From a bacterium (GTDB lineage: Bacteria > Patescibacteriota > Minisyncoccia > 2-01-FULL-47-10 > JBBIMT01), in NCBI GenBank assembly GCA_037444265.1, contig JBBIMT010000001.1, forward strand, positions 1 through 50,873: 50,873 nucleotides of DNA, written 5' to 3'. A model generated the notes under the pieces. It had not been told where the DNA came from. It saw nothing but the letters and a program-made list of their open reading frames with translations, and did no database searches. Below, piece by piece: positions 3 to 43,892 of the stretch (the first letter of the stretch is position 1; each line of letters starts with the position of its first letter). The position numbers and the translations under genes were made by a program.

Positions 3-1409
3 AGTTTACCCCCATCAAATCCTCAAGAATTATCAAACTATCCTTCAGAAATAACACTCCCTCCAGCCAAGCAAAATCAATCTTTAGAATATTGGACACA
101 AGAAAAAACAAATGAAGCGCAATTAAAGCCGCTTTTAAAAGAAAATGAAAAAAATTTTAATCCGACTATCAATACCCTGCCTGAAAATTTTGAATTTAAA
201 TTAACTATTGATGTTTATCAAAAAAGCTCTTCTGATAAAAACAATATAGAAAAATTAAAAGCAAAAGTTGATTTCCAATCTAAAATAGATTTGGTATCTT
301 TTTTTGAATCTGGTCAGATTTTATTTTTAAATGACAATTTATATTTTAAAATTGACAAAGGGACTTTGCTTAATTCATTTTTACCAGATATTACTCAAAA
401 ATGGATAAAAGTTGATTATAAAGACTTTTTTGAAAATCAGGCTGCAACTGATTTTAAACAGGTATTTCCAAAACTCTTCCAGGGTAAAGAAGTTTTAGTA
501 AAAAAACTGGCTTCATTTTTTAGTGGCGCTAAAATACAAGATATATTTTTTATTCAGAAATCAAAAGAAGAACGAATTAATAACATTGATACCTATTATT
601 ATAAATTGACCCTCAAAAAAGAATTTATTTTAAAAATGTTAATGGAGGTTGTAAAAATTTTATCTGAAGAAGTAGTTTTACAAAATACTGAATTCGATTC
701 TAGCAAAAATTTAGCAATTTTCATCAATGAATTGAAAAACAATCAAGAAAAAATGGAAAAAACCACTGATAATATTTCTCAAATGCCCTTTGAAGTTTGG
801 TTTGGCAAAAACGATAATTTAATCTATCAATTTAAAGTTGACATTGGAGAGTTCATCTCTAAAATAGAAGAGCCATCTTCGTCAGAGAGGCAATACAATT
901 ATATCCAAAATATAGCTCCAAAACCCCAAATAGAAGGCTACTTGCAAATTCAATACAGCGATTTTGGAAAAGATTTTGCTATAGAAGAACCTACTGAATA
1001 TGAAAATATTGAAGCGATACTATCAAAGATGGGATTAAGCAATCAAGTTGAAGATGAAAGCTTGAAAATAAAAAAAATTCGCAATGATAAACGCCTTGGT
1101 GACATAAGCACAATAAATTTAGCTTTAGAGTTATACCACAATGATTACAAAAAATATCCAGTTGCTTCAAAATGGACTCGCTTGGATAAACCTAATAATC
1201 CTCTCTGGAGTATTTTATCCAGCAAAAAATATTTTCCAGAGATTCCAAAAGATCCCCTATCGCCTGACTTCTATTATGCTTATAAATCTGATGGCAAGAA
1301 ATATGAATTAAGCGCCCGGTTAGAATATTATCCTGAAATTCAAAATATGTGCGACCCAAGTAACAATCAAATCTGTCTTTTTATTGTAAAAGGCGGTTCA
1401 AATAAATAA
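3..1409 (+). CDS. 5'-truncated large hypothetical (probably surface or secreted) protein ending in a GspG/type IV pseudopilin-like globular domain
   Basis: The frame is open with no stop from nt 3 to the track's TTG at 291, so the CDS enters from outside the window. The last ~110 aa (nt 1077-1406) read RNDKRLGDISTINLALELYHNDYKKYP...FPEIPKDPL...YYAYKSDGKKYELSARLE. This is the R-x-D-x-R-x-x-D...AL-x-x-Y...YP and PKDP pattern of GspG/pilin head domains. Confidence 0.55.
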   Translation, partial: SLPPSNPQELSNYPSEITLPPAKQNQSLEYWTQEKTNEAQLKPLLKENEKNFNPTINTLPENFEFKLTIDVYQKSSSDKNNIEKLKAKVDFQSKIDLVSFFESGQILFLNDNLYFKIDKGTLLNSFLPDITQKWIKVDYKDFFENQAATDFKQVFPKLFQGKEVLVKKLASFFSGAKIQDIFFIQKSKEERINNIDTYYYKLTLKKEFILKMLMEVVKILSEEVVLQNTEFDSSKNLAIFINELKNNQEKMEKTTDNISQMPFEVWFGKNDNLIYQFKVDIGEFISKIEEPSSSERQYNYIQNIAPKPQIEGYLQIQYSDFGKDFAIEEPTEYENIEAILSKMGLSNQVEDESLKIKKIRNDKRLGDISTINLALELYHNDYKKYPVASKWTRLDKPNNPLWSILSSKKYFPEIPKDPLSPDFYYAYKSDGKKYELSARLEYYPEIQNMCDPSNNQICLFIVKGGSNK

Positions 1410-7274: not shown

Positions 7275-7360
7275 GCGGATGTGGCGGAATTGGCAGACGC
7301 GCAGGGCTTAGGACCCTGTGAGGGATTACCCTCTTGGAGGTTCGACTCCTCTCATCCGCA
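7275..7360 (+). tRNA. tRNA-Leu (anticodon TAG), long variable arm, no encoded CCA
   Basis: Acceptor GCGGATG/CATCCGC plus A, anticodon arm CAGGG-CTTAGGA-CCCTG, T-loop GGTTCGACTCC. Confidence 0.93.
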
Positions 7361-7377
7361 TTCAATAAAAATTAAAA

Positions 7378-7405
7378 AGGTAGGCAGAACAAACCTACCT
7401 TTTTT
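7378..7405. terminator. Bidirectional intrinsic terminator shared by tRNA-Leu (+) and the pilin-module operon (-)
   Basis: Stem AGGTAGG (7378-7384) pairs with CCTACCT (7394-7400). It is flanked by an A-run upstream and T-run 7400-7405. Confidence 0.75.
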
Positions 7406-7433
7406 GGTTTTATAAATTTTTTATTAATCAATA

Positions 7434-7859
7434 TTAATCCAACAGTTGTTGTCCTTCACATTCTAAACTGAAATCTACGCCGGTTAAACTTCCTAAAACT
7501 CTAACCAAAGCAAAAGCCAAAGCAACAATAATTATTCCAATTGCGGCAAATCCAATGGTTTTGCCTGCCTGCCCCGCTTTTGCAGAATCACCTCCTGCTG
7601 TTAAAAAACTAATCCCACCAAAAATAATCACAACTACTCCAATTAACAAACCGATAATCAAAATCCATTTAATCATATCACTTAAAAATTTCAAAAAAGT
7701 ACACCAATCCTTAAATGGAGCTTCTCCGATATTTGCTTGTTTCCAAGTTCCCCCTTCCTGTGCTAAAACTGAAGGACTAAAAAAATAAAAAAAAGAAATT
7801 AAATAAGTCAAAAAAGTCACGCCCCACAAAATATTGTAAAAAAATTTTTTTTGTCTCAT
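7434..7859 (-). CDS. TrbC/VirB2-type (T4SS-like) pilin, small form ('A')
   Basis: Long signal peptide ending VLA/QEG, then two TM helices joined by a short loop (IIFGGISFLTAGGDSAKAGQAGK...AAIGIIIVALAF). Strong RBS AAGGAGGTG upstream. Confidence 0.7.
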   Translation of the reverse strand: MRQKKFFYNILWGVTFLTYLISFFYFFSPSVLAQEGGTWKQANIGEAPFKDWCTFLKFLSDMIKWILIIGLLIGVVVIIFGGISFLTAGGDSAKAGQAGKTIGFAAIGIIIVALAFALVRVLGSLTGVDFSLECEGQQLLD

Positions 7860-8008
7860 TTATTTCACCTCCTTTACTTTTTGAAATTTGATAATTATTA
7901 AGATTAATTTCCTATAAAGATAAGTTCCTGATAATTAATTATACCTCAAAGGTAATTTTTGCGCAACAATTTATTTTCTGTAAAAAACAGGAAAAACCAA
8001 TCCAAAAA

Positions 8009-10114
8009 CTATCTATACCCTATTAAATCCATTATAACATTGACAAGGCCAAATGATAATAAAATAATAACAAATCCTATAGCCGCCCAAAGCATCATTT
8101 TTGAAGCAGTTTTTACTCTTTCAGGATTACCTCCAGAGATAAGATACATAATTCCAGCAATAATAAATATAGCCGGAGCTAAAATAATTGCTAACCACTG
8201 CAAAAAAGTGCCAATTCGTCTAATTAACTCAAGTAAAGTGGAATCGCATAAAGGATTAGGAATTATAATTTCACCTTCTTTAGGTTCAGGCATTGATGAA
8301 CAAAAATTTTTTTTCTTGCCGTCACCTCCACCTGTTTCAGAGTCTTTAGGTACACAGATAGCATTTCCTTTCCCATCATCTACGCATTTTTCTGTTTTTA
8401 AATCGCATTTAGAGATATTTTCTGGACTTAAACAAGGATCTGTTAAAACTGGCGGCAAAATATCACTGCCCATACTTACACATTTTCCGCTTACGCATTT
8501 TTTTCCAAAATCACTACAACAGGCTAAAAGAGCGGGTGTGCATATATTATCTGGATTATAATAAATTGAACAATCATTAAAAATTCTTTCAGGCATACAC
8601 TTTAAAAACTTACCGTCTTGGTCTTTTAAGCATCTACCGCTTGAGCAAATAGTCGTTAGACAATTTTCATCGATTCGAGTTTCTTGGACGCATTCTAATA
8701 ATTTCCCATTTTGATCTCTTAAACACATACCACTTGAACAACTAACACTGCAATTTTCATCAAATATTTTTTCGCCATTATTGCTTCCTCCAACATTACC
8801 ACCTAATGGCGGACTGGCGTTTTTTTCTTGTCCAGAATCAAATGTCCCTTGTGCAAACAATAAAGAACCAAGCGCCCAAGTCTTATACTCAACTTGTCCG
8901 CTTTTATTTATCAAAGACGTAAAAGTGCATTTCTCATATTCCTTTAAATCGCCACCTTGAATGATTTGCCATTTACAATAACTATCAATTCCTGCATTAA
9001 ATTCATAATTCAAATTATTTCCTTGTTCGCCTAAATTTTTATAACCTACATTTAAGTCCCTTAAAGTAGTAGCCTGCTTCAAACCAGAAACAAAAGCCGC
9101 ATAATGGTTATAAATATTTTCCATTGCTACTGGAAAAAGAGCAATCGCTGTTTTTACATCATCATTACCAGATGAGTTCAAAAGATTAGCTAAAAAATTA
9201 TAAATCACGTTACCTGCGAAGTTTTTCAGTTTAGCCAAAGTATCAGCTAAATTAGCAATTTCAATTAAATGTCTAGCCGGCTCTATTAATCCATGAAGTT
9301 CTTTTGGATAATTTGATGGCGAATCAAAATTTCCACCTGAAGACAAAACCGCTACGGTTTGCGATAGTGCATCTTTATCAAAATATCTATCAAATGTTAT
9401 TCCAATTGACTCAAACCAAGCGTTAACATCTCTAAAATCAGAAAGTCCTTTTAAAAAACCCATTAAACAACGAAAAACTGAAAGCCCAAAATCAACTTTT
9501 TTAAACATATCACTACTTTGTTTAATATCTACAGGCACATTGTTGATTTTCTCTAAAAAGCATTTTGCATTATCCTTTACCTCCTGAGCGCTCTTTGTTA
9601 AATCTATATTTATTGCTTTTAAATAATAACCTATCGCATCTTGTATCATGTCTACAAAGGAAATAACAAAAAGCACCGCCACTTCTTCGCCTAAAACTCC
9701 AATAAAATTCTCTTTAAGGTCAGGATATTTTTCGCTTAAGAATTTCTCATACAATTTAGTGAAACTTGAGTATTTTTCCTTTGTAAAATTATTGATATCA
9801 ATATCTATTTTATTGCCAGAAACATTGGGTACAAAAGTATGTCCATAGACTAAATAAACAGGACGCAAAACAGTCGCTGCATCTTGTTGTAAAGAATTAA
9901 ATTTTTGTTTTAAACTTTGAAGTTTAGACTTAAAAGCGTTCAGCTCTGATATTATTTGAGCTTCAGCGTCAGCAGTTCCTCCATTGTTGCTCCCTTCTCC
10001 TGGTGGTGGTGGCGGAGGTGGCGGCGCTTGAGCTAAAGCGATAAAAGGAAATATCGCTAATAACAAAATAACTATAGCGATTTTTCGTTTAGTATTTTGA
10101 TGACAAAAAGACAT
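8009..10114 (-). CDS. Large secreted protein ('B'): signal peptide, Pro8 tract, ~430-aa unknown domain, Cys-rich array, C-terminal TrbC/VirB2-like pilin module
   Basis: Signal peptide MSF..KRKIAIVILLLAIFPFIALAQA followed by PPPPPPPP (nt 10001-10024). There are 20 Cys in 172 aa (nt 8246-8761). The C-terminus is PLCDSTLLELIRRIGTFLQWLAIILAPAIFIIAGIMYLISGGNPERVKTASKMMLWAAIGFVIILL. Confidence 0.7.
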   Translation of the reverse strand: MSFCHQNTKRKIAIVILLLAIFPFIALAQAPPPPPPPPGEGSNNGGTADAEAQIISELNAFKSKLQSLKQKFNSLQQDAATVLRPVYLVYGHTFVPNVSGNKIDIDINNFTKEKYSSFTKLYEKFLSEKYPDLKENFIGVLGEEVAVLFVISFVDMIQDAIGYYLKAINIDLTKSAQEVKDNAKCFLEKINNVPVDIKQSSDMFKKVDFGLSVFRCLMGFLKGLSDFRDVNAWFESIGITFDRYFDKDALSQTVAVLSSGGNFDSPSNYPKELHGLIEPARHLIEIANLADTLAKLKNFAGNVIYNFLANLLNSSGNDDVKTAIALFPVAMENIYNHYAAFVSGLKQATTLRDLNVGYKNLGEQGNNLNYEFNAGIDSYCKWQIIQGGDLKEYEKCTFTSLINKSGQVEYKTWALGSLLFAQGTFDSGQEKNASPPLGGNVGGSNNGEKIFDENCSVSCSSGMCLRDQNGKLLECVQETRIDENCLTTICSSGRCLKDQDGKFLKCMPERIFNDCSIYYNPDNICTPALLACCSDFGKKCVSGKCVSMGSDILPPVLTDPCLSPENISKCDLKTEKCVDDGKGNAICVPKDSETGGGDGKKKNFCSSMPEPKEGEIIIPNPLCDSTLLELIRRIGTFLQWLAIILAPAIFIIAGIMYLISGGNPERVKTASKMMLWAAIGFVIILLSFGLVNVIMDLIGYR
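8597..8752 (-). repeat. Two tandem copies of a ~21-aa cysteine module within protein B
   Basis: CSVSCSSGMCLRDQNGKLLEC (nt 8690-8752) and CLTTICSSGRCLKDQDGKFLKC (nt 8597-8662). Confidence 0.8.
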
Positions 10115-10261
10115 ATGTATAAAATAGGGTTTGAAAAATTTAAGATTTATGAATTATAAATTACGGATCAATTTTAATTTTTCAATTTAACAATTTTTGC
10201 AAATTCTTAGATTACAAATCTTAACTTTAAAATCTCAATCCAACATTAATTATTCCTTTTA

Positions 10262-12115
10262 TTACTTTACCGGACAAGTTATACTAAACCATCTTTCAGG
10301 AAAATCTTTTATTGCTTCCGGATTTACAAAAGCAATTAGGATAGTATTAATTATAAGCCAAGCACCATAAATAATCAAAATTCCAATTGCTACGCCTATT
10401 AAAATATCAGTTCCCTGTCTTACGCGATTTGTATTACCAAAATTAAATAAATACATACCACCACCAATTATTATCAGCAAAATAGCAATTGTAGGGACAA
10501 GTTTTAAGGTAACAAAATTGATAATTTTTTGGATTAGATAAAAAAAGTGGCAAAATGTGCAAGGGCAGCCAGCAGTTCCTCTGCAAGGAATAAGTCCTCC
10601 GTTTTCCAAAATACCGTTTTTGCAATCTTGGTCAAATGCCATTTGCGAAGGGGGGTTTGATTGGGGAGGTTCTTTGGATTCCCCGGTTCTTCCAGTATCT
10701 CCCACAACTTTACAAAGAAGCTCTGGTTTTTGATAATCAACGCATTTACCTTGTTTTCCATCGATTTCACATTTATCATCCACTGATTTTCCTTCACAAT
10801 CGTTAAAAACTGGTTTGCACCATAAACTTAAATCTGAAGAATTGGGAATATAATTACATCTTCCGCTTTGACCGTTATTGGCTGTACAAGCTTGTCCCCT
10901 ATTTTTTCTTTCACAATCATCTTTTGTGCCTGAAAGTTGATTATTATCTTGACCTATTTGACCTTCATTTAAGCCACCAATCATTAAAGGCTGATTATTA
11001 TCTGCTTTGATAACAGCAACTTGCGCCGAAACTTCAGAAGACTCAGAAGTATCATAAAACGATGGAGATATAGTAGTTGGCAAATCGAAATTTGAAGATG
11101 GTGGCGGTGGAGGTGGCAGTGATACCTGCGTATAAAGATTATTAAATATATTAAATTGTGATAAATTAATTTTAGGATTAAAAGTATCAAAATCATAAAC
11201 TTTTCCCTTGTATTTAATAATCCATTGAATTTTATCATCTGCCCCAATCGCCCCAACGCCTTCCAAAGAAAAAGTTATCTCACTACTTGACTTTTGTGTT
11301 TTTATTTGAATATTGGTGATTTTAAAAATAGCGCTGATATCCCCGGCAAAATCGGAAAAACCATTCAGACTAAATTCAATTTTTAAATTATTTGTTATAT
11401 GATTAATAAGCTCATCAAAAGTTTTTGGCAAAGTCGTTTTTATAATACCTTCTAATTCTTTTATCAAACTATATTTATCGGCGCAGCCTGAATCTAATTT
11501 AAGATCAGTTTCACAAAGAGCGATTCTACCAATTAACAATGCTGCCTGATCTGCTTCTTTTTTAAACTTCTGGTATAAATTTTCAAGCTCACCCTTAACA
11601 ATATCTTCTAACTTTTTTTTGCCAGAAACAGTAAGTTCAAAATTTATTTTAATATTTTTTAAATTTAAATTGGATTTTGATTCGTTGTAGGATTTTTGCA
11701 AATTATCTAACGCTGTTAAAGTTTTTTGACTAATATTTACAACATTTTGAATATCAGATATAGAAGACACTAGTTGTAAAAAACTATCGAAATTTTCTTT
11801 TGCCTCAAATAAAAGCCCAGAATCAGCCCCACTTAATATCTCTTCAATGATATTTTTTATTTCGTTTATACTTTCATTAACGAAAGTTTTAAAACTTTCA
11901 GGATTTGAAAAAATTTTGGTTTTTTTATCAATTTGGACTAAGGACTTAGTAAAAGCGTTAAAATTATCAACGAAGTCTTTTGCAGATAAAATTAAATTTT
12001 TTAATGAGCTATTTTTATCAAGCAAAATTTTTAAAGCTTGATTTCGATTTATTTTTTTTTCGCTATCTTCTATGGTTATTTTAGCTTTGATTTTTTCCTG
12101 GCTAGTCTCGTTCAT
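10262..12115 (-). CDS. Large protein ('C'): coiled-coil/helical N-terminal region without signal peptide, Pro6 tract, Cys-rich modules, C-terminal TrbC/VirB2-like pilin module
   Basis: Strong RBS AAAGGAGA. LPPPPPPSS lies near nt 11099-11116. Cys modules CERKNRGQACTANNGQSGRCNY...WC and CEGKSVDDKCEIDGKQGKCVDYQKPELLC occupy nt ~10622-10921. The C-terminus is IPCRGTAGCPCTFCHFFYLIQKIINFVTLKLVPTIAILLIIIGGGMYLFNFGNTNRVRQGTDILIGVAIGILII. Confidence 0.7.
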   Translation of the reverse strand: MNETSQEKIKAKITIEDSEKKINRNQALKILLDKNSSLKNLILSAKDFVDNFNAFTKSLVQIDKKTKIFSNPESFKTFVNESINEIKNIIEEILSGADSGLLFEAKENFDSFLQLVSSISDIQNVVNISQKTLTALDNLQKSYNESKSNLNLKNIKINFELTVSGKKKLEDIVKGELENLYQKFKKEADQAALLIGRIALCETDLKLDSGCADKYSLIKELEGIIKTTLPKTFDELINHITNNLKIEFSLNGFSDFAGDISAIFKITNIQIKTQKSSSEITFSLEGVGAIGADDKIQWIIKYKGKVYDFDTFNPKINLSQFNIFNNLYTQVSLPPPPPPSSNFDLPTTISPSFYDTSESSEVSAQVAVIKADNNQPLMIGGLNEGQIGQDNNQLSGTKDDCERKNRGQACTANNGQSGRCNYIPNSSDLSLWCKPVFNDCEGKSVDDKCEIDGKQGKCVDYQKPELLCKVVGDTGRTGESKEPPQSNPPSQMAFDQDCKNGILENGGLIPCRGTAGCPCTFCHFFYLIQKIINFVTLKLVPTIAILLIIIGGGMYLFNFGNTNRVRQGTDILIGVAIGILIIYGAWLIINTILIAFVNPEAIKDFPERWFSITCPVK

Positions 12116-12135
12116 TTACATTCTCCTTTCAAAAA

Positions 12136-12182
12136 ATGACGGATCGTTCACTTTTTTAAAGATGACATACTGTTCACTTTTT
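12136..12182 (-). promoter_or_regulatory. Two tandem 21-bp repeats ATGAC-N5-GTTCACTTTTT (26-bp period) just upstream of gene C; candidate operator
   Basis: 12136-12156 is ATGACGGATCGTTCACTTTTT and 12162-12182 is ATGACATACTGTTCACTTTTT. They lie 21-67 nt upstream of the start codon at 12115. Confidence 0.3.
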
Positions 12183-12329
12183 GTAAAGCAAAAAATTTAA
12201 AAAAAAAGAAAAAAGCACAAACGCGACAAAGCTTACCGAAAATGTTAAGAAGGAAATTTTAAAAATTTTCAACATACAAACTAACAAAGTCAAACCTTGA
12301 TGCGTATTGATTTATAATTTAAAAATCAA

Positions 12330-13829
12330 TCACCTTTTAGTTGGTGGAATAAGGACTTTTACTTTCTCATTGGCTGACTTTAAAGCTTCAAATATTTCTT
12401 TATTTCCCTTTAAAACATCTTCCATTGCATTGATTAAAATTTGTTCAACAAGCGCTCTATCTGGACGAGGCCAACTTTTAGCTGTTAAAGATTGAACTGC
12501 AAAAACTCCGAGTTCTGGATGATTGCCTTGAAAATCGACAAGATCTTTTCTAGCAGTTGGCCTGAAAGCTTTTTCTAAATAAACTTTAGAATTATCTTTA
12601 TTGGTCAAAAATATTAAAAACTCCCACGCGCTATAGCATTTTGCGCCACAAATAGATCCTTGTCGCGTTTTATCTAAAACCTTATTAGTTACGGCAACAC
12701 CATAATAATCAGCATAATTTACTTTACTAAAAGAATCAGCTTTTAGTTGAGGTACAGGCGCAACTCCAAAATTTAAATAAGCATTTTTATTTTTAATATC
12801 GGGTATGATATAAGCATAATCTAATATCATTGACACTTCTTCTCTAACGAAAGCATCTATTGAATAGTTTTGTCGATTATTCCAAGTATAAACATCTTGA
12901 TTATTTATTAAAGCAATGGGATTGGCAAAAGCTAAATAAAATTTAAGGGCATCAATCACTGGAAATACAGTCCGACCATCCGATAAAACACGACTTTCCG
13001 TAAAAGAAACTTTTCCTTTTTGTAAATCAATTGGAGAAGCCCCACTTTGAAGGGCAAGAAGCATAAAAATATCTACCGCTCGATGCACTGTTTTAGTATC
13101 GCCTAAAGCAACAGCCGCACGCTCAATAAAACCATCTATTCTAATGCGACGCAATTTTTGGACAACAGATATAAACTCATCCCAAGTTTGGGGAGGTTGG
13201 GCAATAGCAGAAGAATAAAAATGGTTTTTATTATAAAATAAAGCTAAAGTATCGACATAAAGTGGCATTGCATACACCTTACCATCAGAAATAAAATCTG
13301 CTGCTGCTACTGGTACAAAAATTTCACCATAATTTTTTAAAATATTTTGATAAAGTTCTTTTTTAAAGGAAGCGTTTGTATATTCACAATTCTTTTTCGG
13401 TGTGTTTTTAGGAATTGGCGGTATAGTATCTTCAGCAGTGGTGAAAAATTTTCGATAAAACTGATTATAAACAATACAAGGAGGTAAAGGTACTAAAAGT
13501 TCTTTGTTTTTAAAAAGTTCAGTATTATGAAGCATTATAATATCCGGCCCCTTACCGCTAGCAAGTCCTTCTAAAATTGCTTTTTCATAATCCTGAGGAC
13601 TTAATTTTTTATAAGAAATAGAAATATTAGGACGCACTAACTTAAAATTTTTTATTACGCTGTCATAAATATAAGAATCATCATATACCCCCCAAAAAGT
13701 CAAAGAAACTGGTTCAAGTTTAGGTGGAGCTGGTTTGGTTCCAAATGTAAATACCAAAAGGATAATCAAAATGAATGCCGCTAATCCCCCAAAAAGTATA
13801 ATTTTTGTTTTTGATTCGACTAAACTCAT
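12330..13829 (-). CDS. Extracellular solute-binding protein (ABC-type, family 1-like), membrane-anchored; no cognate permease or ATPase nearby
   Basis: N-terminal TM anchor, then LTFWGVYDDS...GKGPDIIMLHN...YAMPLYVDTLALFYNK, which is typical of sugar/solute SBPs. Confidence 0.7.
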   Translation of the reverse strand: MSLVESKTKIILFGGLAAFILIILLVFTFGTKPAPPKLEPVSLTFWGVYDDSYIYDSVIKNFKLVRPNISISYKKLSPQDYEKAILEGLASGKGPDIIMLHNTELFKNKELLVPLPPCIVYNQFYRKFFTTAEDTIPPIPKNTPKKNCEYTNASFKKELYQNILKNYGEIFVPVAAADFISDGKVYAMPLYVDTLALFYNKNHFYSSAIAQPPQTWDEFISVVQKLRRIRIDGFIERAAVALGDTKTVHRAVDIFMLLALQSGASPIDLQKGKVSFTESRVLSDGRTVFPVIDALKFYLAFANPIALINNQDVYTWNNRQNYSIDAFVREEVSMILDYAYIIPDIKNKNAYLNFGVAPVPQLKADSFSKVNYADYYGVAVTNKVLDKTRQGSICGAKCYSAWEFLIFLTNKDNSKVYLEKAFRPTARKDLVDFQGNHPELGVFAVQSLTAKSWPRPDRALVEQILINAMEDVLKGNKEIFEALKSANEKVKVLIPPTKR

Positions 13830-13865
13830 AACTTTTAGTTTATAATAAAAAATAAAATATTTATT

Positions 13866-14396
13866 TCATTTCACAAAAACAAGTCCAAAATGAGCAATTC
13901 CAGCGTTAAAACTTTCTAAGAAATTAAATCCTACTTGAAAAGCTTTTTCTTTAAATTTTTCTGAATCAATTTTATGTTCTTTAGGACCGAAACTGGCTTT
14001 ATTTGACCAATCGATGACGATTAATTTACCTCCGTGTTTCAAAATTCTATAAGCTTCATTTAAAATTTTAATTTTATCTTCATCAGGATTTTGAAACATC
14101 ATATTTGCAGCAAAAACAAAATCGCAGGAATTTTCTCTTAAAGCAGTGCTTTGGGGCAAAGCTAAATTAGTTTTTTTAACTTCAATATTTTTAAAACCAA
14201 ATAAATGGGCCTTTCTTAAAAGCCCTTCAAGCGCTTCATCTAGAATATCAAAAGCGTAAATTTTTCCTTCATTGCCTATTTCTTTGGCAATCAATAAAGT
14301 TAAATGGCCATGCCCACAACCAAAATCAGCAACTTTAGCACCGTTAAAAAAAGCGCATTTTCTAATAATATCTTCCGGATTTAATAACCCGTCCAT
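13866..14396 (-). CDS. Class I SAM-dependent methyltransferase
   Basis: Motif I VADFGCGHGHLT and post-I/II motifs (IYAFDI, LKHGGKLIVIDW). Confidence 0.8.
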   Translation of the reverse strand: MDGLLNPEDIIRKCAFFNGAKVADFGCGHGHLTLLIAKEIGNEGKIYAFDILDEALEGLLRKAHLFGFKNIEVKKTNLALPQSTALRENSCDFVFAANMMFQNPDEDKIKILNEAYRILKHGGKLIVIDWSNKASFGPKEHKIDSEKFKEKAFQVGFNFLESFNAGIAHFGLVFVK

Positions 14397-24222: not shown

Positions 24223-26652
24223 TCACAGTTTAGCTCTTTCAATAATTTCTTTTTCAACAATTTCTTTGGGTCTACCATATTTGAGCTTGGATATTTTTTT
24301 AAGAGGTTCAACAATTACTTTATTGCCTGGAGCTGGTTTTACTGTCTTTAACATAAATGGTCGCGAAGTTTTCCCATTGATAATAATTTTAGATAGAGCA
24401 TGAAAATTATCTAAATTAATTAAATCTTGTTTGGAAAATTCCGGCAAAAATTGTTTTTCAACAAATTCAGCATCTTGAGCGCCAATTCTGAAAGAAAACA
24501 TTGAACCAACATTCCCAAAAACAGCATCACGAATTTTTTCATCCAATTGAGCAATAAATTGATGAGCAACAATAAGATTTAAACGATATTTTCTCGCTTC
24601 TGACAAAATAGTAACGATAGAGTTTGTAGTAAAATTTTGAAATTCGTCTATGTATAAATAAAAGTCGCGTCTTTCTTCTTCTACAATATCAGATCTTTTC
24701 ATTGCTGCCATTTGAATTTTTGAAACTAAAATAAGACCAAGCAAAGCCGCATTAACTTCTCCTGTTTGCCCTTTAGACAAATTAGCTAAAAATATTTTTC
24801 CACTATCCATTATTTCTCTTAAATTGAAACCTGATTTCTGCTGGCCAATAATATTTCGCATCATTTCATTTTCAACAAATCTTCCTACTTTTGAAACAAC
24901 ATAACCTAACATATCTGACTTAGTTGCCCCTGTTGTTTGGCGCCACTCTCTTTCCCAAAATAACCTTACCACAGGATCAGAAACTTTTTCGAGTTTGCTT
25001 TGCATAAAAGCATCATCAGTAAAAATACGCGGAATCTCAACTAAAGTACCGGGGCTAGAAGAGTCAGCCATTAAAGCTAACATTGCATTTCTCATATAAT
25101 GTTCGAACATTGGGCCAATTATTTCTGGCGGAAAAAGTTTTTCAAATATTGCAATCATTTCTTGAACTGCAAAATCTTTTTGTTCAGGACTGTCGTATTC
25201 AAGCATATTAAGACCAATGGGTCGAGCCATATCAAATGGTTCAAAAACAATAACATCTTCTGCTCGCTCTTTTGGTATATGGGAAAGTGTAGCATTAATC
25301 AAATCTCCGTGCGGATCAATTACTCCTACTCCCCTACCTTTTTCAATATCTTGTCTAATTAATTCTTCAAAAAGAGCTGTTTTGCCAGTGCCAGTTTGCC
25401 CAATAACATACATATGCCGCCGTCTATCATCAACAGAACCAAAATATACTTCTTTCCTTTCTCCACGAAATACAGTCTCTCCTATTTTAATTTCTCCGTC
25501 ACTTGGTAAATCAGGCGGAGGAGCAACTTCTCTCACCTTTAATATTTTCAATGATGGGGTTTGAAGATTTCCTAAAGATAGATGGAAAATACTTGCTAAT
25601 TCAGCGGTATTTAAAAGAATTTTTTCTTTATATGAAAAACTTCTGAAAATAAAATTATAAATATGTTTTTGGAGTCTCCATTTCTTAACTCTTTGAATAT
25701 GAAATTTTGAACCCAAGGGATTAGTGAATTGACCAAACCCAGCCTCAAGAGATTTTAATATATTTTCTGATTTTTCTTGAGTATCAGCGGAAGCTATAAG
25801 TCGAATATTTACAAAAAAAAGCGGTTTTGATAATTTAAAGGAAACGTTCTCAATCATTTTTTGATCTGGTTGATTTTTTGTTGTTTCTTCCATTTCTCTT
25901 TTTTGCTTTTGCTCATTTGTTTCAAAAAAGCGCCAAATTTTCTCAAAATTAAATGATGCTTTTTTTAAACTTTCATGAAAACTTTTTCCCATATAAAGAT
26001 ATTCAAGAATTTTTTTCCCTTTTTCCTCTAAACTCAAAGGAGCTTTAACTAAAACGATTTGCACCGCTGCTCCTTCATTTTTAGGAATCTTAGATAAAGC
26101 GTTTGTGATTTGTGAAAGTGGATCCTGAGCTAAATTTAAATAAGTTTGTATTGGCAAAAAATCATTTCCTGCTAATTTAATAATTGAGCCGGCTTGCACT
26201 TGATGCAACTTAAAAATGCTATAATCTTCGGAAACTTTTTCTAAATGAGCTTCAGGATATGCCCCTTGAATAGTTTTTATAATTTCTTGTTCGTATGCTT
26301 TGCTTATAGCAACGAAAAAATTAATTTGATTTTCATGAGTAGGCGATACTATTTCAAAAGCAATCACCGGCGGACCCTCAAGAAATTGTTTCCAAAATCC
26401 AACATTGCCTATATTTAAACAGGCACTGTAGATTTGTTCAGCTGCTCCTATCAATTCTTTATAATTTTTTTGCGAATTTTCTTTTTGTTCTTGCGTCAGT
26501 TTAGGAGCTTGAATCAAATAAACACTGCAACCTAACAATGACCTGAGATGCCCTACTTGTCTTTTTGAAAAAATAGCCAAAAAAATATATGCCAAAACAC
26601 CTGTAATCAAAAAAAGTGATAAAATAAAAAGAGTAAAATAATAGGTGTTCAT
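24223..26652 (-). CDS. VirD4/TrwB/TraG-like (type IV coupling protein-type, FtsK/HerA superfamily) membrane-anchored P-loop ATPase
   Basis: N-terminal TM (YYFTLFILSLFLITGVLAYIFLAIF), a ~370-aa unknown domain, Walker A VIGQTGTGKT, IDPHGDL, Walker B LYIDEFQNF, and ARKYRLNLIVAHQFIAQL. Confidence 0.65.
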   Translation of the reverse strand: MNTYYFTLFILSLFLITGVLAYIFLAIFSKRQVGHLRSLLGCSVYLIQAPKLTQEQKENSQKNYKELIGAAEQIYSACLNIGNVGFWKQFLEGPPVIAFEIVSPTHENQINFFVAISKAYEQEIIKTIQGAYPEAHLEKVSEDYSIFKLHQVQAGSIIKLAGNDFLPIQTYLNLAQDPLSQITNALSKIPKNEGAAVQIVLVKAPLSLEEKGKKILEYLYMGKSFHESLKKASFNFEKIWRFFETNEQKQKREMEETTKNQPDQKMIENVSFKLSKPLFFVNIRLIASADTQEKSENILKSLEAGFGQFTNPLGSKFHIQRVKKWRLQKHIYNFIFRSFSYKEKILLNTAELASIFHLSLGNLQTPSLKILKVREVAPPPDLPSDGEIKIGETVFRGERKEVYFGSVDDRRRHMYVIGQTGTGKTALFEELIRQDIEKGRGVGVIDPHGDLINATLSHIPKERAEDVIVFEPFDMARPIGLNMLEYDSPEQKDFAVQEMIAIFEKLFPPEIIGPMFEHYMRNAMLALMADSSSPGTLVEIPRIFTDDAFMQSKLEKVSDPVVRLFWEREWRQTTGATKSDMLGYVVSKVGRFVENEMMRNIIGQQKSGFNLREIMDSGKIFLANLSKGQTGEVNAALLGLILVSKIQMAAMKRSDIVEEERRDFYLYIDEFQNFTTNSIVTILSEARKYRLNLIVAHQFIAQLDEKIRDAVFGNVGSMFSFRIGAQDAEFVEKQFLPEFSKQDLINLDNFHALSKIIINGKTSRPFMLKTVKPAPGNKVIVEPLKKISKLKYGRPKEIVEKEIIERAKL

Positions 26653-26669: not shown

Positions 26670-27041
26670 CTAAATTTTACCAAGCGCCACTAATTTATAA
26701 AATAATTCATCTTTACTTAAAATATCGTGCAAAGCATCAAGGATATAAGCGTCATTCATTTTTTTGGCTATTTCAATCGCTGTTAAGGGACCCTTCTCAA
26801 AGGCTAACTCGATTAATTTTGATATTTTTGTTTCATCTGGTAAATTTTTAAGGGCTTGACTATGCTGATACGCTTCCTGGTGTATTGCCTCTGGCAACAA
26901 TATCTTAGAAATGTGTTCTTTTAAAGCGATAACTTCATGAGAGATTTCAGCCTTACTTTTCTCTTTATAAGCAACCGATTTTTCTATAGCCTCTTGTTTT
27001 ATTTTTTCAATATCTGGCAATTTTACTTCTTTTAATTCCAT
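26670..27041 (-). CDS. Hypothetical helical acidic protein, 17 nt upstream of and co-directional with the coupling-type ATPase
   Basis: ORF only. No motif recognised. Confidence 0.4.
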   Translation of the reverse strand: MELKEVKLPDIEKIKQEAIEKSVAYKEKSKAEISHEVIALKEHISKILLPEAIHQEAYQHSQALKNLPDETKISKLIELAFEKGPLTAIEIAKKMNDAYILDALHDILSKDELFYKLVALGKI

Positions 27042-42299: not shown

Positions 42300-42484
42300 T
42301 TTTAAAAAAACTATATAAGCCCTTAAAAAAGACTTACAAAGTTTTTATCAATTAAATATAAAGGAACTATCATAAATGAAATTTTTAAAAAATCAATATA
42401 TTTTAACTTCAGTAAAATTTTCTTTTATATATCAAATATTCAAAATAATTTTATAAAATAAACCAAAAAATCGATTTCCACTGA

Positions 42485-42557
42485 TGCGCCCGGCAGGAGT
42501 CGAACCTGCAACCTTGAAGTTAAGAGCTTCCTGCTCTACCAATTGAGCTACGGGCGC
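42485..42557 (-). tRNA. tRNA-Lys (anticodon CTT), no encoded CCA
   Basis: The reverse complement is GCGCCCGTAGCTCAATTGGTAGAGCAGGAAGCTCTTAACTTCAAGGTTGCAGGTTCGACTCCTGCCGGGCGCA. The anticodon loop is CTCTTAA. Confidence 0.9.
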
Positions 42558-42656
42558 ATTTCAATATATAAAATAATAATTAAAAGATTTCTTTAAATGA
42601 TAAAAATTTTTCTTTAAAAAGCAATTTAACTTGAAAAATTAAAAAAATAAAATCTG

Positions 42657-42729
42657 TGCCTCTGCCAGGATTTGAACCTGGAATACGACGTCCGAAGCGT
42701 CGCGTGATATCCAATTTCACCACAGAGGC
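42657..42729 (-). tRNA. tRNA-Arg (anticodon TCG), no encoded CCA
   Basis: The reverse complement is GCCTCTGTGGTGAAATTGGATATCACGCGACGCTTCGGACGTCGTATTCCAGGTTCAAATCCTGGCAGAGGCA. The anticodon arm is CGACG-CTTCGGA-CGTCG. Confidence 0.9.
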
Positions 42730-42926
42730 ACATTTTTGCGCCAAAAAATTAAAAAATTTTAAATGACAATTTCTCACTCGTTTTACTTTGTATAAAAAAA
42801 ACATAAATTCAAAATATTAACAACCAAAAACTTAACTTAATATTTCAAATTTAATTTACTAAAAATTTAAACCCATAAACCTTGAATTCTCACAAAATTT
42901 AAATGTTTATAACTGATTTTTTATTA

Positions 42927-43892
42927 TCATTTTATAATTTTTTGGTTTTTGTTTTGGTCTTTTCTTTGTAAACTTTTGCCGTGATATTTTTGATAAATTT
43001 CTTTTAGTCTTGGATCGGTAATATGAGTATAAACTTGCGTTGTGGTAATACTTGAATGACCGAGCAGTTCTTGTACTGATCGAATATCAGCTCCAGAAGC
43101 TAACATTTCAGTCGCAAAAGAATGACGCAAAGTATGTGGGGAAACATCTTTACCAACTATTCCTGCTCTAGCAGCGTATTTTTTTATAATTCTCTGGATG
43201 GATCTAACAGTAATTCGCAAATCTGACTTGTCTGACGATAATTTTTTAGGTACTCTTATAAATAAAGCTTCACTTATATCAACTCTTTTATCTAAATAAT
43301 TCTTAATTGCCATTTTAGCTGAATCAGACAAAAAAACAATTCTTAACTTTCCTCCTTTTCCTTTTACTGTAAACTCTCCTTTTTCCAAATTAATTTGCTC
43401 TCGATTTAAATTTACAAGTTCAGAAACGCGCAATCCAGTACTAAATAAAGTTTCCAAAATTGCTTTATCGCGCAGATTTCTTAAACTATTGCCTTTGGGC
43501 GCATCTAACAACCTTTTAATTTCATCAGGATCTAAAAAAGAAACTTGCCTTTTCTCTTGTTTGCTGAGTTCTATTTTTTCGGGCGATAAAACTTTATAAC
43601 CCCTTTTTGCCAAAAAAGACAAAAATCCTCTTAAGGCGATAATGTGATAATTTTGAGTAATCTTTTTAAGTGGCTCACCTTTTTGATCAACTTGCCTGTT
43701 TAACCATAAACGATATTTTAAAATTAAATCTTCAGTGATTTCATTGATGTTTGAGACCTTTGACCAGTTAAGAAATTTTTTAATGTATCTTTCGTAATTT
43801 TTAATTGTCAAAATCGCCCTATTTTTTTCAATTTCTAAATATGTCAAATAATCAAATAAAAGCTTTTTGATGTTATTTGAAATCTCTCCCAT
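42927..43892 (-). CDS. Tyrosine recombinase, XerC/XerD-like
   Basis: N-terminal SAM-like core-binding domain (YLEIEKNRAILTIKNYERYIKKF) and a catalytic domain with GLRVSEL, HTLRHSFATEML and LLGHSSITTTQVYTH. Confidence 0.88.
   Translation of the reverse strand: MGEISNNIKKLLFDYLTYLEIEKNRAILTIKNYERYIKKFLNWSKVSNINEITEDLILKYRLWLNRQVDQKGEPLKKITQNYHIIALRGFLSFLAKRGYKVLSPEKIELSKQEKRQVSFLDPDEIKRLLDAPKGNSLRNLRDKAILETLFSTGLRVSELVNLNREQINLEKGEFTVKGKGGKLRIVFLSDSAKMAIKNYLDKRVDISEALFIRVPKKLSSDKSDLRITVRSIQRIIKKYAARAGIVGKDVSPHTLRHSFATEMLASGADIRSVQELLGHSSITTTQVYTHITDPRLKEIYQKYHGKSLQRKDQNKNQKIIK

Follow-up and report, generated by a model that had tools for sequence, protein, structure and literature searches.

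What kind of system is encoded by three co-directional, gyrA-linked genes of an ultra-small bacterium of the Patescibacteria (candidate phyla radiation, CPR), one small and two very large, which all end in the same pilin-like module? The genes are found in a DNA stretch of 50,873 nt (contig JBBIMT010000001.1 of assembly GCA_037444265.1; the whole stretch is referred to as the window). All three are on the minus strand: A (7434-7859, 141 aa), B (8009-10114, 701 aa) and C (10262-12115, 617 aa). These open reading frames (ORFs), as proposed in a first-pass annotation that was made from the sequence alone, were confirmed exactly. That annotation considered the locus a candidate novel surface filament or adhesin system, with one small pilin and two giant pilin-anchored proteins. 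We conclude that it is an unusual version of the known patescibacterial pilin array and not a new kind of system or machine class. What is new here is a gyrA-linked slot for such genes, the correspondence of B to the first pilin of this slot (with a lineage-restricted N-terminal domain added) and the loss of the signal peptide from C.

The C-termini of A, B and C are homologous across all three proteins. Each consists of two long hydrophobic helices with a short basic loop between them (A: GGDSAKAGQAGK; B: GGNPERVKTASK; C: FGNTNRVRQG), and the modules are ~28-33% identical to each other. The module covers residues ~50-127 in A (7479-7712), residues 626-701 in B (8012-8239), where it is preceded by an NPL motif, and residues 523-600 in C (10316-10549), where it is divergent. 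In the Pfam family PF18895 (T4SS_pilin, for type IV secretion system; gathering score 26.6 bits), A scores 30.4 bits and B 39.3 bits, while C, with 18.8 bits, stays below the cut-off. The alignment of B and C covers the last Cys unit and the module (BLASTP E-value 2e-6; hhalign probability 94%, E-value 9e-8), and because of this homology, the C module is counted as a family homolog despite its subthreshold score. The shared module and the motifs that had been quoted for it are thus present in the sequences. As judged by these profile and alignment matches, the earlier call of a conjugative or T4SS pilin family can be specified: the modules belong to the VirB2-like T4SS_pilin family (PF18895). 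The three genes are adjacent and divergent. A fourth copy was not detected when a hidden Markov model of the module was run against all six frames of the window. A and B have a signal peptide in addition to the two-helix hairpin, and C has the hairpin without a signal peptide. We consider it very probable that the proteins have this family identity and that their ectodomains are displayed on the surface.

Gene A, as first proposed, codes for a protein of normal pilin size. It has a signal peptide (residues 1-33, predicted to be cut between VLA and Q) and a confidently predicted hairpin. The AlphaFold2 (AF2) model, built from a 92-sequence alignment, has a mean predicted local distance difference test score (pLDDT) of 78 and contains helices at residues 3-27, 52-87 and 92-126. 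The first helix is the signal peptide; over residues 60-120, the hairpin reaches a pLDDT of 88-95. This model is consistent with a VirB2-like fold, without discriminating it from other folds. The ortholog P0008 is 93% identical. Cys53 and Cys134 lie on either side of the hairpin. A similar arrangement is seen in C, which has a Cys cluster at residues 511-522 and Cys614 in its tail; in both proteins, the Cys before helix 1 and that in the tail after helix 2 are predicted to be outside of the cell. B has no tail cysteine. One may speculate that a disulfide joining the two positions in A and C would staple the ends of the hairpin together.

Gene B codes for a signal peptide (residues 1-27, cut between ALA and QA), followed by a helical region (residues ~48-349), a beta region (residues ~356-426), a region with 20 Cys (residues 455-623; 8246-8752) and the module. 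A Pro8 tract is encoded at 10001-10024. The helical and beta regions are low-confidence assignments from an AF2 model that was based on a 3-sequence alignment and has a pLDDT of 43.9, which makes it usable for secondary structure alone. In this model, the Cys-rich part forms small hairpins and is followed by the terminal helical hairpin. B has orthologs with 87% and 54% sequence identity. A word-indexed homolog search with the full-length protein returned two relatives, and the same number was obtained with full-length C. Among the best 150 matches in a search of representative proteins (see below), only P0003 (54% identity) and P0015 share the B N-terminal domain (N-domain), so that, as far as these matches indicate, the domain is confined to a narrow lineage. 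P0015 (1186 aa) has two tandem copies of a B-type cassette, each made up of a helical region, a beta region (containing a C-x-W motif) and a Cys-rich region, and then a single pilin module. Its halves match each other with an E-value of 4e-6, and the second half matches B with an E-value of 6e-14. The ectodomain thus acts as a cassette that can be duplicated.

The N-domains of B and C have no Pfam or NCBIfam match at E<=1 and no sequence match in the PDB, where profile searches with the B family and the C family returned nothing meaningful. When the two families are compared by hhalign, homology is limited to the last Cys unit and the module. BLAST links between the N-domains are weak (E-values 0.002-0.017 over 75 residues, in a 6-sequence database). 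B and C share the order of their parts; a link between their N-domains is only suggestive.

The module has a much wider distribution than the ectodomains. In a search of 1.84 billion representative proteins, a B-family profile matched 7537 clusters (E<=1e-3), of which the best 150 were analyzed for domain architecture. All but two of these 150 match via the module alone. A single module, almost always at the extreme C-terminus, is found in 117/150 clusters. At least 300 residues precede the module in 22/150 clusters and at least 500 in 12/150. The best small relatives (90-160 aa) are named "pilin" or "TrbC/VirB2 family protein" at NCBI and are from Patescibacteria, Nealsonbacteria and Parcubacteria. 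In a scan of ten long members, the N-terminus mostly resembles a signal peptide, and PKD, fn3, Ig-like, ASH or HYDIN-type domains, which are typical of extracellular adhesion, occur in several of them; the ectodomain is followed by a Cys-rich or Gly/Pro-rich linker and an NP[LIVM] motif. The B module is 36-49% identical to the modules of such unrelated long proteins and to small pilins. Going by these architectures, the layout of signal peptide, ectodomain and pilin module is widespread in public protein data. We found no published discussion of it. The remaining 33/150 clusters are tandem fusions of 2-8 modules (e.g., P0016, P0017, P0096 and P0101; one of the fusions has 820 aa, 8 modules and almost no Cys). 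These proteins, for which we found no published description, could be polyproteins or polytopic membrane proteins.

The NP[LIVM] motif is just ahead of the module in 107/117 single-module relatives, B included. This position, together with the potential polyproteins, would fit B and C being precursors that are cleaved near NPL, releasing a secreted protein and a normal-sized pilin. We consider such processing quite improbable. In small pilins, the motif is located 10-25 residues past the signal-peptide cut and thus within the mature protein. In the AF2 model, helix 1 begins where the motif is located, so that it resembles a helix cap rather than a cleavage site. A and C lack NPL, and the locus contains no protease gene.

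It had been argued in the first-pass annotation that scattered homologs without conserved linkage would speak against a common system. Instead, the order C-B-A is kept in relatives: in L001 (with the 87% identical B ortholog), in L002 (54%; here, the end of C overlaps the start of B) and in the metagenome-assembled genome (MAG) SIS170217_bin_288. The latter also keeps the flanks, with gyrA, the methyltransferase and SBP on one side and VanW, HSP20 and PrsW on the opposite side. For a wider comparison, five long contigs were used that encode the five small pilins closest to the B module (L005-L009; one contig is 750 kb long and one is from a Ca. Nealsonbacteria MAG). All five share the neighborhood of the window locus, with the gene order S1, Lactamase_B_3, gyrA, methyltransferase, pilin 1, pilin 2, HSP20, PrsW and LeuRS or TsaD. 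The slot between methyltransferase and HSP20 is thus occupied by two small pilins in 5/5 relatives. As GyrA from the window is just ~50% identical to that from these contigs, the slot is old. Slot pilin 1 is matched by the B module with 73-88 bits, slot pilin 2 with 32-45 bits; it follows that B is the expanded counterpart of slot pilin 1. The assignment of A to slot pilin 1 or 2 is ambiguous. In L006, pilin 1 has a short Cys-rich peptide ahead of NPL, which suggests a continuum from short to giant forms. In L007, the two pilins are directly followed (10956-14199) by two polytopic membrane proteins of ~530 aa that are glycosyltransferase-like and lack the pilin module; they may be linked to glycosylation of the pilins or of the surface.

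We favor, with moderate confidence, the reading that the locus is a chromosomal VirB2-like pilin array, with exported ectodomains that are held by the module, either in the membrane or, with B and C as minor subunits, in a pilus formed mainly by A. Proteins of the A, B and C type would be exported via Sec, with cleavage after the signal peptide (between A and Q). The two hydrophobic helices would insert as a hairpin, with the basic GG(D/N)PxK/R loop in the cytoplasm, which would place the whole N-terminal region outside of the cell. Such an N-out topology is suggested by the basic loop, the even number of extracytoplasmic Cys (24 in B, 16 in C) and the extracellular domains found in relatives; a disulfide system that is enriched in the CPR, MdbA/VKOR, has been described (bioRxiv 10.1101/335083). 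A T4SS that is encoded elsewhere in the genome would then polymerize A, as the main subunit, from a membrane pool. B, and C where it is intact, would be taken in as rare or tip subunits, so that their ectodomains could contact a host cell or a substrate. B may have arisen from slot pilin 1 by the gain of ~600 residues between signal peptide and module, and C would be a further paralog. Of these steps, we infer tethering of the ectodomains by the module and uptake into an A pilus via a T4SS encoded elsewhere; actual incorporation into a T4SS pilus is, in our view, somewhat less likely than not. The first-pass annotation had proposed a major subunit with two displayed subunits. Of this, a position of the large N-terminal regions outside of the cell is expected for B and for the C orthologs, which have signal peptides, but not for the C protein of this genome, and no filament is shown.

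Several results weigh against a role in a T4SS pilus. The threshold of PF04956 (TrbC/VirB2, 27.9 bits), a family for which the first-pass annotation had proposed a profile search in addition to CPR-type T4SS pilin profiles, is not reached by any of the three proteins (A 13.8 bits, C 20.5 bits, B without a match). Weak PF04956 matches accompany those to PF18895 in many small relatives. None of the solved pilins was matched by sequence or by fold: a PDB sequence profile search with the module gave nothing specific, and a Foldseek search of the PDB with the A model returned generic helical hairpins, all with E>1 and with no pilin among the top 50, an outcome that is uninformative and does not count as a negative. 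The folds of the ectodomain are not recoverable from the B model at a pLDDT of 44. The window has no match to VirB4, VirB3, VirB6 or TrsD. In a Pfam scan of its ORFs of at least 100 aa, no VirB4, VirB6 or VirB8-10 domain and no relaxase were detected, as had been noted for the adjacent genes. In 5/5 relatives, the 10 kb to each side of the slot contain no T4SS gene. A position within ~20 genes of virB4 and other T4SS genes, which is not universal among the published pilin genes, applies neither to the window nor to the five syntenic relatives. With no T4SS gene nearby, the link to a T4SS is carried solely by family membership. According to a 2025 review (PMC12857230), a T4SS pilus of the Gram-positive type is an open possibility, and none has been seen in any Patescibacterium. 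The tandem fusions of 2-8 modules are hard to fit with simple polymerization and suggest that the module may also serve as a plain membrane element.

The same results bear on another explanation, according to which B and C are surface proteins of a monoderm that use the hairpin as a C-terminal anchor, are never polymerized and have no role in a T4SS. It is kept alive by the lack of linked T4SS genes, here and in the five relatives, and by the multi-module, presumably polytopic, fusions. The joining of the module to many unrelated ectodomains (PKD, fn3 and Ig-like) and the generic hairpins from the fold search also agree with it. We nevertheless consider it unlikely. Conservation of the NPL cap, of the GG(D/N)P turn and of invariant Gly residues exceeds what hydrophobicity demands, the B module corresponds in both position and sequence to a free-standing small pilin, and saccharibacterial pilins of this kind are located inside a T4SS cluster and are essential. 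As the module is conserved in long and short forms, a specific role in assembly is favored over that of a mere anchor.

The window has one T4SS-like ATPase, which had been noted previously to lie 12 kb away. It is confirmed as a stand-alone, VirD4/TraD-like protein of 809 aa (24223-26652, minus strand), with NCBIfam matches far below the cut-offs and no family match for its first ~380 residues. It is preceded by an unannotated ORF of 123 aa (26670-27041, minus strand). In Patescibacteria, 5713 homologs of VirD4-like coupling proteins have been reported from 2918 genomes, almost never near virB4. Linkage of the pilin locus to this ATPase was rejected, as there is no evidence for it, the matches are below the cut-offs and the VirD4/TraD-like kind is usually not linked to virB4.

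The ratio of nonsynonymous to synonymous substitution rates (dN/dS) was computed for the window versus L001 and L004. It is 0.53 for A (from few changes), 0.39 for B and 0.27 for C, and thus below 1, yet 3-5 times that of the flanking genes (0.09 for gyrA and the methyltransferase, 0.13 for SBP). Accordingly, by these ratios, A, B and C are real, constrained genes. The distal parts of the locus proteins change 5-10 times faster than the adjacent housekeeping proteins. Within B, dN/dS is 0.52 for the helical region (dN 0.095), 0.14-0.15 for the beta and Cys-rich parts and 0.30, on few changes, for the module (dN 0.005). The C module has a value of 0.05. The raised ratios fit surface-exposed, host-facing proteins. 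The comparison of dN for module and helical region indicates that the B module is conserved far beyond the needs of a mere anchor.

Gene C differs from its orthologs at the N-terminus. The parts that follow are a helical/beta region (residues 1-335), a Pro6 tract (encoded at 11099-11116), a Cys-rich region (residues 401-522; 10550-10915), the divergent module and, after residue 600, a tail of 17 aa that contains Cys614. The orthologs from L001 and L004 (MAG SIS170217_bin_288) have 649 aa, are 83% identical and start with a classical signal peptide (MMKIFTISFLTFSVSFVAFALFSFFLNFSSVAFA). In the window, C has no signal peptide: its N-terminus is MNETSQEKIKAK, and an in-frame TAA is found directly upstream of the ATG. 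DNA alignment to L001 revealed that 48 nt of the orthologous gene are replaced by a 100-nt segment (12089-12188, minus strand). The DNA that had coded for the signal peptide persists as a relic, now an ORF of 33 codons (MLKIFKISFLTFSVSFVAFVLFSFFLNFLLYKK, followed by a stop; 12174-12275, minus strand). The replacement contains two direct repeats (AAAGTGAAC-N5-GTCAT, at 12136-12154 and 12162-12180) and also brings a stop codon, a new GGAG Shine-Dalgarno site and the ATG at 12115. The repeat motif occurs nowhere else in the window and in none of nine related loci. The replacement could have come from recombination in this strain, be a regulatory insertion or reflect a chimeric assembly; the C protein without a signal peptide is recorded from this assembly only. 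The start region of B is also variable. Its first 47 codons have a dS of 1.44 and a dN of 0.59 versus L001, while the gene bodies are ~90% identical, and the spacer between C and B has large indels (146 nt vs 237 nt; window 9974-10261, L001 3090-3470). Recombination or replacement thus seems to have hot spots at the 5' ends of the two big genes.

With the signal peptide lost, C cannot simply be a displayed subunit in this genome, as had been proposed; it is probably mislocalized or on the way to inactivation. One may go further and consider the big genes, C above all, as nonfunctional remnants that are kept by chance, in line with the replacement upstream of C, the restriction of this form to one assembly and the lack of a Shine-Dalgarno site for B. 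We regard decay of the locus as highly improbable. The ORFs are intact over 617 and 701 codons at a GC content (~31%) where stop codons arise easily, and their dN/dS values are 0.27-0.39. For C, no decay is visible in the comparison to the ortholog, least of all in its module. The replacement supplies a fresh, strong Shine-Dalgarno site together with the ATG, and orthologs are intact in two or three other assemblies. A further C-like protein is P0006 (367 aa), which is labeled "candidate division WOR-3 bacterium" at NCBI. In the module region, it is 72% identical to C and agrees with the C fragment from L002 at nearly every residue. A Pro/Ser/Thr-rich linker takes the place of the Cys-rich segment. 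A binning error probably accounts for the WOR-3 label; otherwise, the label would point to transfer.

The closest known counterparts of the locus are the pilin arrays of Patescibacteria. When 3035 genomes of this phylum were searched with PF18895 and PF04956, VirB2-like pilins were found in 1948 assemblies, with a pilin gene near virB4 in 1135/1948, and 441 arrays were reported from 383 assemblies, each with 2-11 pilin genes and with a mean identity of 25% (Quinonero-Coronel et al. 2025, PMC12102498). A series of such pilins was shown to be essential in Ca. Southlakia epibionticum (Wang et al. 2023, PMC10633639); in strain ML1, this essential array is inside the T4SS cluster SEML1_0006-0019. 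The locus resembles these arrays in being chromosomal, in having tandem, co-directional, divergent paralogs of the same family, in having no relaxase and in being, as they often are, away from virB4. It differs in that the described members are treated as small pilins, whereas two of the three genes here code for lineage-specific ectodomains of 520-620 residues, and in that it resides in the gyrA / HSP20-PrsW-LeuRS slot and not near virB4/dnaA. The architecture had previously been taken as uncharacterized. This view has to be revised, as VirB2-like arrays have been published for Patescibacteria and long pilin fusions are frequent in databases.

Other systems are more distant. With the TrbC/VirB2/TraA proteins of Gram-negative T4SSs (PF04956), the locus shares the long signal peptide, the two helices, the short basic loop and the small mature form of A; as a speculation, a disulfide in A could mimic the head-to-tail cyclization. 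The PF04956 scores are subthreshold, VirB4, VirB5, VirB6 and TraF are not encoded adjacently, and the host is a monoderm. We know of no canonical pilin with an N-terminal domain of 500-600 residues. The role proposed for B and C resembles that of the VirB5/TraC tip adhesins and minor pilins, in which a rare or tip component would present its binding domain on a filament of VirB2. The sequences are not similar (no Pfam match at E<=1; neither a VirB5/TraC profile nor a PDB sequence is matched by the N-domains of B and C), and VirB5 is a separate soluble protein and not a pilin fusion. Mbov_0395 / MMCAP2_0565 (NF045849), from integrative and conjugative elements (ICEs) of Mycoplasma, are also small two-helix, pilin-like proteins and belong to a T4SS of a wall-less or monoderm host. 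The B module scores 31 bits and A 18 bits, both under the 40-bit cut-off, and the Mycoplasma proteins are small and ICE-borne.

The row C-B-A is closed by a hairpin that resembles an intrinsic terminator (7374-7404, minus strand; 12-bp stem and T-run) and is located between A and the convergent tRNA-Leu (7275-7360, plus strand). As a terminator scan detected no such site in the C-B and B-A gaps, the single strong terminator of the first-pass annotation was confirmed. The same applies to its assignment of strong Shine-Dalgarno sites to A (AAAGGAGGTG) and C (GAAAGGAGAA) and of none to the start of B. Promoter-like sites occur at chance level (24 found vs 23 expected), and therefore no claim is made about an operon or promoters beyond the single terminator. 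Repeats within the locus are just the tracts that code for poly-Pro. The window has a GC content of ~31% and codes mainly for housekeeping proteins (LeuRS, gyrA, NusA, trigger factor, ClpP, PNPase, RecA and FtsH). Genetic code 25 (UGA=Gly) was rejected because all genes read cleanly with table 11. As a scan of genome contigs returned a single related MAG, the placement of the organism in the Patescibacteria rests on gene content and synteny, not on a marker phylogeny. Two further genes were noted. An ORF of 372 aa (291-1409, plus strand) matches the GspG/T2SSG pseudopilin weakly over residues ~262-341 (Pfam 19.2 bits, NCBIfam 21.2 bits, both below the cut-offs); it may code for a large protein that resembles type IV pilins, which would make it a second type of surface-filament gene in the window. 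A tyrosine recombinase of 321 aa (42483-43892, minus strand), with Phage_integrase and SAM-like N domains, adjoins tRNA-Lys/tRNA-Arg; it could be XerC/D or mark the border of an integrated element.

The one Patescibacterium that has been tested genetically cannot live as an epibiont without its T4SS pilin arrays. Host recognition is an obvious candidate role for pilin modules that are fused to large extracellular domains and evolve under relaxed or diversifying selection. It is conceivable, though doubtful, that proteins of the B and C type are true VirB2-type minor subunits in a monoderm, each with a large, fast-evolving binding domain of its own, in a modular adhesin-on-pilin design with exchangeable ectodomains (helical plus Cys-knot here, PKD, fn3 or Ig in other proteins) on one conserved polymerization module. 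If so, this design would set to which host cells Patescibacteria attach, and the slot next to gyrA, with its two pilins, would serve the whole phylum as a core locus for host contact, apart from the T4SS cluster. The gyrA-linked slot is a simple handle for comparing pilin fusions across the phylum. The value of the locus is that it flags ectodomain-pilin fusions and this slot as testable candidates for host recognition.

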